A stretch of 25,730 bases of DNA from a virus. Taxonomy: Duplodnaviria > Heunggongvirae > Uroviricota > Caudoviricetes. Location of the stretch: IMG/VR virus record IMGVR_UViG_2713896781_000012; one strand, written 5' to 3'. This document shows, one piece after another, positions 17,508 to 18,357 of this stretch. Within the stretch, counting starts at the first letter, position 1, and each line of letters starts with the position of its first letter. The notes under the pieces are model-generated. The model was not told the DNA's origin and did no database searches. It saw only the letters and a list, made by a program, of their open reading frames with translations. Made by a program: the position numbers and the translations under genes.

Positions 17508-17838
17508 TCCTTAATACCCGTCATGTTAACTGCATGACAGGGCTATTTAAACAATCACTAAAAATCGCCCAAGAGCATTCTGTTTCTATAATGTATTCCA
17601 AGAGATTAAAAAATAATATCATACGTTATTCGGCAGAGTTCGTATGTACTACGGCGTCCCAACCATGTCCCAAAACAAAAATTTCTGCCCTATACACGTT
17701 CCAAAAAATTCAACAGCAAAGAGAGTCTGCTGACGAGTTGTTGATTCACTGATTAATACGTAAAATTGATAACTGCTGGAAATCATACAATACTCGTACT
17801 TTCGAAAGTTCGCTAACCAGGTGCTACACGCGAGGTGT

Positions 17839-17860
17839 TGCAGTTTTCTTTACGATTTAT
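17839..17860. repeat. 22-bp element TGCAGTTTTCTTTACGATTTAT, copy 1
   Basis: Matches 20369-20390 at 21 of 22 positions; weaker similarity in the flanking bases. Confidence 0.7.
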
Positions 17861-18357
17861 CATTCAATCCTAATCCATGCATGACATGTGGTGCCTGTGG
17901 GGTGATCCTACCTACGTAATGTGGACACAGCCCTAATCAAGGTTCTGTTTTTCAAAACAGTTCCGTGCTGAGACAGCCACAAGTACTGTGTCGGCACCAC
18001 CGATTGTAATCACACTAGATCTAATTAAACACAGCCGTCTGCATTATTTCCCGACTCATAAAATATTAGCCGTAAATGCATTCGACTTTTAGTGAGTGGA
18101 AGAAACTTTCCGCCCTAGCATTATCGTAACAGCGCCCCTTTGCACTCATCCTGTCATGCAGGTATGCCGCTTCAGAAGCGCCTGATAATGCGTTGAAATC
18201 AGGACGGTGGCTACTTGCTATTCAGTTCACGATACAAAATGGGCAATATCCCTTAAGGACCAGCGAATAGCAATGAGTCACTTTATTATCAAGTTTGATG
18301 ACCGCTTTGATGCTAACTTTTAATAAGAGTCTCTTCACACAAAATCGTGTACCGAGT

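Follow-up and report, generated by a model that had tools for sequence, protein, structure and literature searches.

Results

Gene content of the window

The window, by which we mean the whole stretch of 25,730 nucleotides that was analysed, begins with the early and regulatory half of a lambda-like prophage of the yecE type with a phiP27-like int. This half, here called prophage A, occupies positions 1-17532 and was delimited by its 100.0% identity with the yecE-integrated prophages of E. coli U1 and NMBU_W05E18. According to the annotation of the identical U1 prophage, it contains a porin gene, Q, replication genes, cI/cro, early-left genes, xis and int. The porin gene is OmpC-like and is located between a tRNA cluster and Q (890-1972, + strand). 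The same annotation has a DUF968 gene with an internal stop at 2561-3550 (- strand). The window shows no stx region; the place that stx takes in Stx phages is just outside its left end. The U1 copy of prophage A lacks stx. At the right end of this half lie xis (15902-16138, + strand), the excisionase gene of prophage A, whose product matches PF06806 (DUF1233, putative excisionase) with an E-value of 9.5e-33, and int (16194-17507, + strand). The latter encodes a tyrosine integrase of the heterobivalent type with an N-terminal arm-binding domain (PF12167 Arm-DNA-bind_2, E 1e-23; PF00589, E 3e-18). This Int of 437 aa has 96% amino-acid identity to the Int of the Stx2e phage phiP27, which is a yecE integrator, and 76% to the IntR of the published Stx2a phages inserted in PPompW.

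The counterpart of prophage A in U1 is a complete lambda-like prophage of ~49 kb in the 5' end of yecE. Its far end reads yecD-yecE'-core-arm-dinI-tail fibre-lom-J, and at the opposite end int is followed by the body of yecE. Because the U1 copy has its own J/lom end, the J/lom/cargo segment of the window is foreign to prophage A. In the U1 lysogen, PGAP annotates a YecE (DUF72) that is shortened and starts within the int 3' end (L002 23489-24259); in this strain the phage may supply the interrupted yecE with a new 5' end and possibly with transcription.

The rest of the window corresponds to PPompW (prophage B), a defective lambda-like prophage in ompW that has an ompW-type integrase and a 121-bp att (PMC8112680). 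Positions 17526-25000 are 100% identical to the O145:H28 PPompW records PPompW_132418, _699 and _EH2201, and the sequence from 17514 on has 99.94% identity to the prophage terminus beside the ompW 3' remnant of strain 95-3192. The first gene of the exchangeable effector locus of PPompW is a T3SS effector gene of the nleG family (18358-19008, - strand; PF06416, E 9e-45, and annotation). An IS630-family transposase pseudogene at 19240-20296 (+ strand) has its coordinates transferred from the 99.94%-identical 95-3192 annotation. It is followed by the effector genes espM1 (20515-21105, - strand; PF03278, E 3.6e-36, and annotation) and nleG (21289-21936, + strand; PF06416, E 3.6e-49, and annotation). 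By transferred annotation, an espO-like gene lies between this nleG and an IS256 remnant (23412-23992) that cuts lom, and a truncated lom remnant is found at 23974-24159 (- strand). The 3' part of gene J (tail tip) occupies 24227-25730 (- strand) and is 100% identical to the 95-3192 gpJ outside runs of N. These runs, at 24341-24413, 24742-24791 and 25480-25529 (73, 50 and 50 bases), stand for longer stretches in 95-3192 (165, 115 and 117 bp, respectively). Because of the N runs J looks frame-broken in the ORF list, which is a masking artefact and no sign of a pseudogene. The gene order given in the original prediction, Q-replication-cro/cI-early-left-xis-int and then cargo-lom-J, agrees with both the U1 identity and the Pfam results, with lom present as a truncated remnant only.

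Contents of the interval between int and the effector locus

The interval 17508-18357 had been described as 850 bp without a convincing ORF, which was borne out. It contains a single ORF of at least 60 aa (17534-17752, 72 aa), which we rejected as a gene as it has no Pfam match and spans the fossil att arm described below. The tRNA search of the interval found none, the Rfam search gave nothing above threshold, and the promoter and terminator scans gave none above shuffled expectation. An RNA gene or tRNA as integration target was also rejected, the one sub-threshold match to a miRNA family being due to the core palindrome.

The right part of the interval carries an IS3-family transposase remnant (17952-18196, - strand), a pseudogene with 4 stop codons in its translation that is annotated by PGAP in the 99.9%-identical segment of 95-3192 and in many others. 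The palindrome CTGTTTT-tc-AAAACAG, which had been pointed out as notable near 17945, is present at 17945-17960 but is at chance level and irrelevant to the core. Inverted repeats with a 7-bp stem numbered 1 in the interval against a mean of 0.49 in shuffles, and this count was reached in 159 of 500 shuffles. The palindrome was rejected as a candidate for the core on this ground and because it marks one edge of the IS3 remnant. Homology to the interval begins exactly at 17945 in some O111 genomes (for example L010, O111 RM9322, 5712-6413). The breakpoint in RM9322 abuts a truncated recombinase (Pin-like) gene beside tonB, and the break at 17945 in O111 points to a local rearrangement that would have deleted both intra-prophage att sites. 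In E2348/69 (O127:H6) and one O55:H7 strain, homology to the interval stops at 18131 and an espO gene follows; since homology ends there, the effector locus has been exchanged from 18131 on in these lineages.

An unoccupied attB-in-PP_2-like site of 96 bp, which resembles the ykgJ/ecpE intergenic region, lies at about 17724-17819. Its boundaries are putative; the published attB-in-PP_2 is placed 185 bp from attB-in-PP_1 (PMC8112680). The region forms a 97-nt block with 86% identity to the U1 phage's own copy, which sits beside dinI. If the window's phage also carries such a copy, the source genome has at least two. The host-like block continues over 17820-17898 with a flank like the ykgJ upstream region and first codons (BLAST to K-12 NC_000913 ykgJ/ecpE, L009 2847-2645), and 17724-17898 as a whole has 71% identity to K-12 ykgJ-ecpE over 203 aligned columns.

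The att core and its breakpoints

PPompW holds a 21-bp attB-in-PP_1, CCGCCACTTTAACTGCATGAC, beside the exchangeable effector locus, and this site lies within 100 bp of 87% identity to yecE (PMC8112680). The position of the published 21-bp att in the window is 17518-17538 (CCGTCATGTTAACTGCATGAC), beginning 10 bp past the int stop codon. An inverted repeat GTCATG-N7-CATGAC is located at 17520-17538, 13 bp past the same stop codon. Identity to the U1 yecE lysogen stops at 17532, and the PPompW matches start at 17514-17526, varying by match. From the breakpoints against U1 and PPompW and from the published site, the recombinant att core was placed at 17517-17542 and reads CCCGTCATG / TTAACTG / CATGACAGGG, with TTAACTG (17526-17532) as the 7-bp overlap (crossover) region.

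In the site alignment, the attB of K-12 yecE reads CCCGCCACT TTAACTG CGTGGAGGG and the unoccupied PPompW site CCCGCCACT TTAACTG CATGACAGGG. The int side of the U1 prophage reads CCCGTCATG TTAACTG TGTGGAGGG and its far side CCCGCCACT TTAACTG CGTGATACGG, and the window junction is CCCGTCATG TTAACTG CATGACAGGG. TTAACTG is the only stretch identical across the attB, attP-derived and recombinant sites, and it is flanked by inverted core-type half-sites; the window site has the form of a lambda-type core, that is, two inverted half-sites around a shared overlap of 6-8 bp. Judged from the sequences, this pattern is the one expected from a reciprocal Int-mediated exchange between attP and attB within TTAACTG. 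The right half-site of the window is identical to that of the published attB-in-PP_1, and TTAACTGCATGAC and everything rightward of it is PPompW sequence.

The window core also corresponds to a repeat_region annotated in LC567818. In this GenBank record an Stx2a phage inserted in PPompW is bounded on either side by a 21-bp duplication, and the PPompW ends carry a 121-bp ompW duplication ~300 bp farther outward than the 21-bp repeat. The far junction in this record carries the PPompW-specific decayed yecE fragment. The hybrid att site that had been expected somewhere within 17.5-18.4 kb was found at 17518-17538, in a junction collinear with a whole attP, and alignment to the corresponding prophage ends in comparators and to the K-12 yecE attB placed the exchange in TTAACTG.

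Sequences flanking the core in PPompW and phi80

Right of the core, PPompW is not yecE-like. Positions 17533-17723 are equivalent to the conserved spacer of 185 bp reported by Nakamura et al. They can be aligned to the arms on the int-distal side of phiP27, the U1 prophage, the Stx2a_14040 phage and the phi80 fossil described below. Based on this alignment we regard the segment as a putative fossil, the int-distal att arm of a yecE phage like phiP27 that has become part of PPompW. Its identity to the U1 int-distal arm is 67% over 206 nt (E 4e-15). The match to phiP27 is higher and then continues into the attB-in-PP_2-like block, as in phiP27. Against a composite phiP27 attP, 17126-17810 gave one HSP (86.2% across 696 columns), and a composite of K-12 yecE 5', the core and the phiP27 distal arm could be aligned over its whole length with the unoccupied PPompW site. 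In the PPompW site chromosomal homology reaches no further than the core, as is characteristic of a captured junction between host and prophage. A simple mimic of attB (B-O-B') was rejected as the description of the site in 95-3192, given that its right flank is homologous to phage int-distal arms.

On the other side of the core, and outside the window, the yecE-like fragment of PPompW measures 98 bp, with 90.8% identity to K-12 and an in-frame TAG at codon 9 (95-3192, L001 11926-12023). The fragment is decayed and non-functional. The 228-bp spacer between it and ompW is the ompW phage's own arm, since ompW prophages without the attB-in-PP_1 module (~770 genomes) have the first ~125 bp of this spacer in common.

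A similar arrangement is found in phi80 (JX871397, L017 2701-3193), which carries 323 bp with 96.3% identity to K-12 yecD 3'-yecE 5'. This yecD-yecE' homology runs to 4 nt beyond TTAACTG, where the same arm takes over, and a LexA box and dinL come next. The record is in vegetative order with attP intact, and the copy adjoins phi80's own attP. By its sequence arrangement, the yecD-yecE' block looks like a fossil of aberrant excision. The phi80 prophage itself could be a target for yecE-type phages.

Candidate arm-type Int sites

The Int of prophage A has the PF12167 arm-binding domain, and a candidate doublet was found by sequence in each arm of the junction. The doublet of the int-proximal arm, GTCCCAATGATGCCCCA (17445-17461, + strand), lies inside the 3' end of int, and that of the fossil distal arm, GTCCCAACCATGTCCCA (17656-17672, + strand), falls in columns that are invariant in the PPompW/phi80/U1 alignment. 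The 17-nt doublet, GTCCCA-N3-ATGYCCCA, occurs 2 times in the window (17445 and 17656) against 0.01 expected. Among the comparators, 13 loci contain it, and all of its occurrences there (20/20) adjoin a yecE-type att core. The single motif TGYCCCAW was rejected as a signal, as it is not enriched window-wide (5 found versus 3.8 expected); only the 17-nt doublet is informative. From conservation and over-representation we propose that the doublets are arm-type Int sites, although the int-proximal one overlaps coding sequence and part of its conservation could be protein-level. Further downstream arm sites of phiP27 are deleted or decayed in the fossil arm of the window.

Occurrence in other genomes

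The interval is present in 542 of the 5,426 complete E. coli genomes, almost always as one copy per genome. The unoccupied form, in which ompW', the 228 bp, the yecE-like fragment and the core are contiguous, is found in 490 complete genomes. An int abuts this effector locus in 16 complete genomes, and the inspected ones (H1, H4) have the IntR allele. IMG/VR has 3 contigs with an int/effector-locus junction, all of the IntR allele. The exact junction of the window is absent from the complete RefSeq E. coli genomes, the GTDB representatives, the JGI metagenome contigs and the IMG/VR contigs. The window would be the one instance, as read from sequence, in which a phiP27-type Int has used attB-in-PP_1. 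Unsequenced non-Stx phages at attB-in-PP_1 are mentioned in four O145:H28 clade H strains (PMC8112680), and the window junction may be one of these cases.

Discussion

Probable nested integration and its alternatives

We interpret the interval as the int-proximal junction, called attL in the published work, of a phiP27-type phage nested in PPompW at attB-in-PP_1, with a probability of roughly 0.8. The identities, the breakpoints and the collinearity with attP are read directly from the alignments. The window stops short of the far end of prophage A and of the int end of prophage B, and for this genome the nested topology and the ompW location are the most likely arrangement by extrapolation from other genomes. 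The integration of yecE-type phages at attB-in-PP_1 has been described, with the attP of the excised circle sequenced, as prophage-in-prophage and no classical tandem (PMC8112680).

Prophage A, whose normal target is the 5' end of yecE, would here have been inserted into attB-in-PP_1 by Int-mediated site-specific recombination. In PPompW this site separates the effector locus from the terminus on the ompW side and lies ~430 bp inside the end. Strand exchange within TTAACTG would leave the left half-site CCCGTCATG from the phage and the right half-site CATGACAGGG from PPompW. The terminal ~430 bp of PPompW, consisting of the decayed yecE', the 228-bp spacer and the 121-bp ompW att, would be expected on the outer side of the far end of prophage A. 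Nesting predicts that the far junction has PPompW-type yecE' (ATGGTTTACATTGTTCTACCACAATAG...), CCGCCACTTTAACTGCGTGATACGG and then the arm of prophage A with dinI, and that the ompW att and yciE follow outward. Int and Xis should excise prophage A precisely, and the excised circle would carry an attP with ...ATACCCGTCATGTTAACTGCGTGATACGGAATTTTT..., including ...CCCGTCATGTTAACTGCGTGATACGG.... Because the target would be a fossil int-distal junction with its arm and no naked attB, insertion of prophage A would have rebuilt an attP-like hybrid site, collinear with a complete attP.

The alternative that survives best, which we nevertheless consider unlikely, places prophage A at yecE and has Int/Xis recombination with the fossil site of PPompW invert the ~640-kb terminus-spanning segment between ompW and yecE. 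The window would look the same in this case. By orientation reasoning, the two sites are inverted relative to each other on a K-12-like chromosome. The fossil site is built like an int-distal junction, the formal excision partner of an int-proximal one, and it keeps a candidate doublet. Moreover, ompW and yecE flank the terminus, and these strains are reported to undergo inversions around it that are mediated by prophages (PMC8112680). However, every sequenced case at the site is a simple nested insertion with the decayed PPompW yecE' at the far junction, excised circles were detected experimentally (PMC8112680), the fossil arm has lost most of the downstream arm-type repeats, and no such inversion junction is reported.

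The original prediction took the two halves for lambdoid prophages in tandem. That they are distinct prophages in the same orientation is supported by our results, but they have no common chromosomal att site (ompW versus yecE types) and are nested in every sequenced comparator. In a classical tandem both would have integrated successively at one chromosomal attB via the same integrase type, and the interval would be the hybrid attP-like site. The shared orientation fits such a history, a junction collinear with a complete attP is how tandem junctions look, and in evolutionary terms the cargo end once belonged to a yecE-integrated prophage. Against this, the same cargo end (99.9-100%) lies ~430 bp from the ompW 3' remnant in the 490 complete genomes with the unoccupied site, and the prophage that carries it has an ompW-type integrase and the 121-bp ompW att (PMC8112680 and GenBank annotation). 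The adjacent yecE-like DNA is the 98-bp decayed fragment, not the chromosomal yecD-yecE locus, and in the comparators the two prophages differ in chromosomal attB and in integrase type. We therefore regard a classical tandem as highly improbable.

Least credible of all is a single rearranged prophage, a phage genome in vegetative order or an assembly chimera: J-lom-b region-attP-int-xis is indeed the lambda vegetative order and the site resembles a whole attP, but each half exists independently at 100% (prophage A in U1 with its own J/lom/dinI end, prophage B in the PPompW records, where it has an early region of its own), the B-side arm is decayed and only ~67-86% like genuine A-type phage arms, and an assembler would not join the halves on 7-13 shared bases. 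The original prediction had named one rearranged prophage as what would overturn it; the int-Q half is complete in U1, and the cargo half occurs without it in ~490 complete genomes.

Possible origin of the attB sites inside prophages

With nesting at attB-in-PP_1 as the preferred interpretation, the most likely reading of this site from the alignments is that a yecE 5' fragment and the core are joined to ~190 bp of int-distal arm from a phiP27-like phage. More generally, we lean somewhat towards the view that the attB sites inside prophages are fossil prophage-host junctions, of lambda-bio-type aberrant-excision origin with later replacement of the integrase module, and not captured naked attB sites. 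In such a history, a yecE prophage would first have undergone a lambda-bio-type aberrant excision, its integrase module would then have been swapped, and the module would have spread through recombination among lambdoid phages. For attB-in-PP_2 this model is a poor simple fit, as the host-like sequence continues on the EEL-facing side in the window, and attB-in-PP_2 in other prophages has chromosomal homology on both sides (PMC8112680). The captured yecE' fragment is on the ompW-facing side of attB-in-PP_1, opposite to the attB-in-PP_2 pattern.

It has already been published that attB-in-PP_1 lets yecE-type phages, Stx2 phages included, lysogenise EPEC/STEC in which yecE is occupied, with the consequence that strains accumulate effector genes and duplicate stx phages. 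Because the window adds an instance with a different (phiP27-type) integrase allele, it suggests that the decoy site is open to the yecE-integrase family as a whole. If the fossil reading is true, it answers the question of the 2021 paper as to how attB enters phage genomes, and insertion rebuilds a hybrid, possibly recombination-competent attP beside the effector locus. Such a rebuilt attP could promote Int-driven rearrangements, including ompW-yecE inversions. The fossil reading offers the attB sites inside prophages a concrete origin that can be tested, and it also predicts arm-type Int sites for this integrase family.

Comparison with known systems

In lambda dilysogens, the junction between two prophages has an attP-like structure, and such a structure at the junction between two elements is common to those and to the window. 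Specialised transducing phages of the lambda-bio type arise by aberrant excision, and their host DNA ends at the core and continues as phage arm. The fossil site shares this int-distal signature of aberrant excision, which is freshest in phi80. Unlike in lambda-bio-type phages, the captured host DNA here is tiny (98-323 bp) and is now an integration target for other phages, and the carrier uses a different integrase and a different chromosomal site.

With the Stx2e phage phiP27 (AJ298298) the window shares the integrase, at the 96% amino-acid identity given above, and an identical int-proximal arm and core (..ATACCCGTCATGTTAACTG). The difference from phiP27 and the yecE phages is the target, which here is the decoy site within PPompW and not chromosomal yecE.

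The closest system is that of Nakamura et al. (PMC8112680). The window shows three of the features that mark its members, namely a PPompW-type host with its effector locus, the PPompW-side att half and a yecE-type int adjoining the junction. The PPompW host segment (100% identity), the 21-bp site, the orientation, the position beside the nleG/espM1/nleG locus and the attB-in-PP_2 neighbour 185 bp off are all the same. In contrast, the phage of the window has a phiP27-type Int, whereas the published cases have IntR (76% at the amino-acid level), and its phage half-site is CCGTCATG versus the published CCGTCACA. The paper treats attB-in-PP_1 as a host-derived attB, and the homology to a phage arm on the opposite side is not described there (PMC8112680). 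The prophage-in-prophage kind was already described in pathogenic E. coli in 2021; the phiP27-type integrase allele and the reading of the target as a fossil junction extend it modestly.
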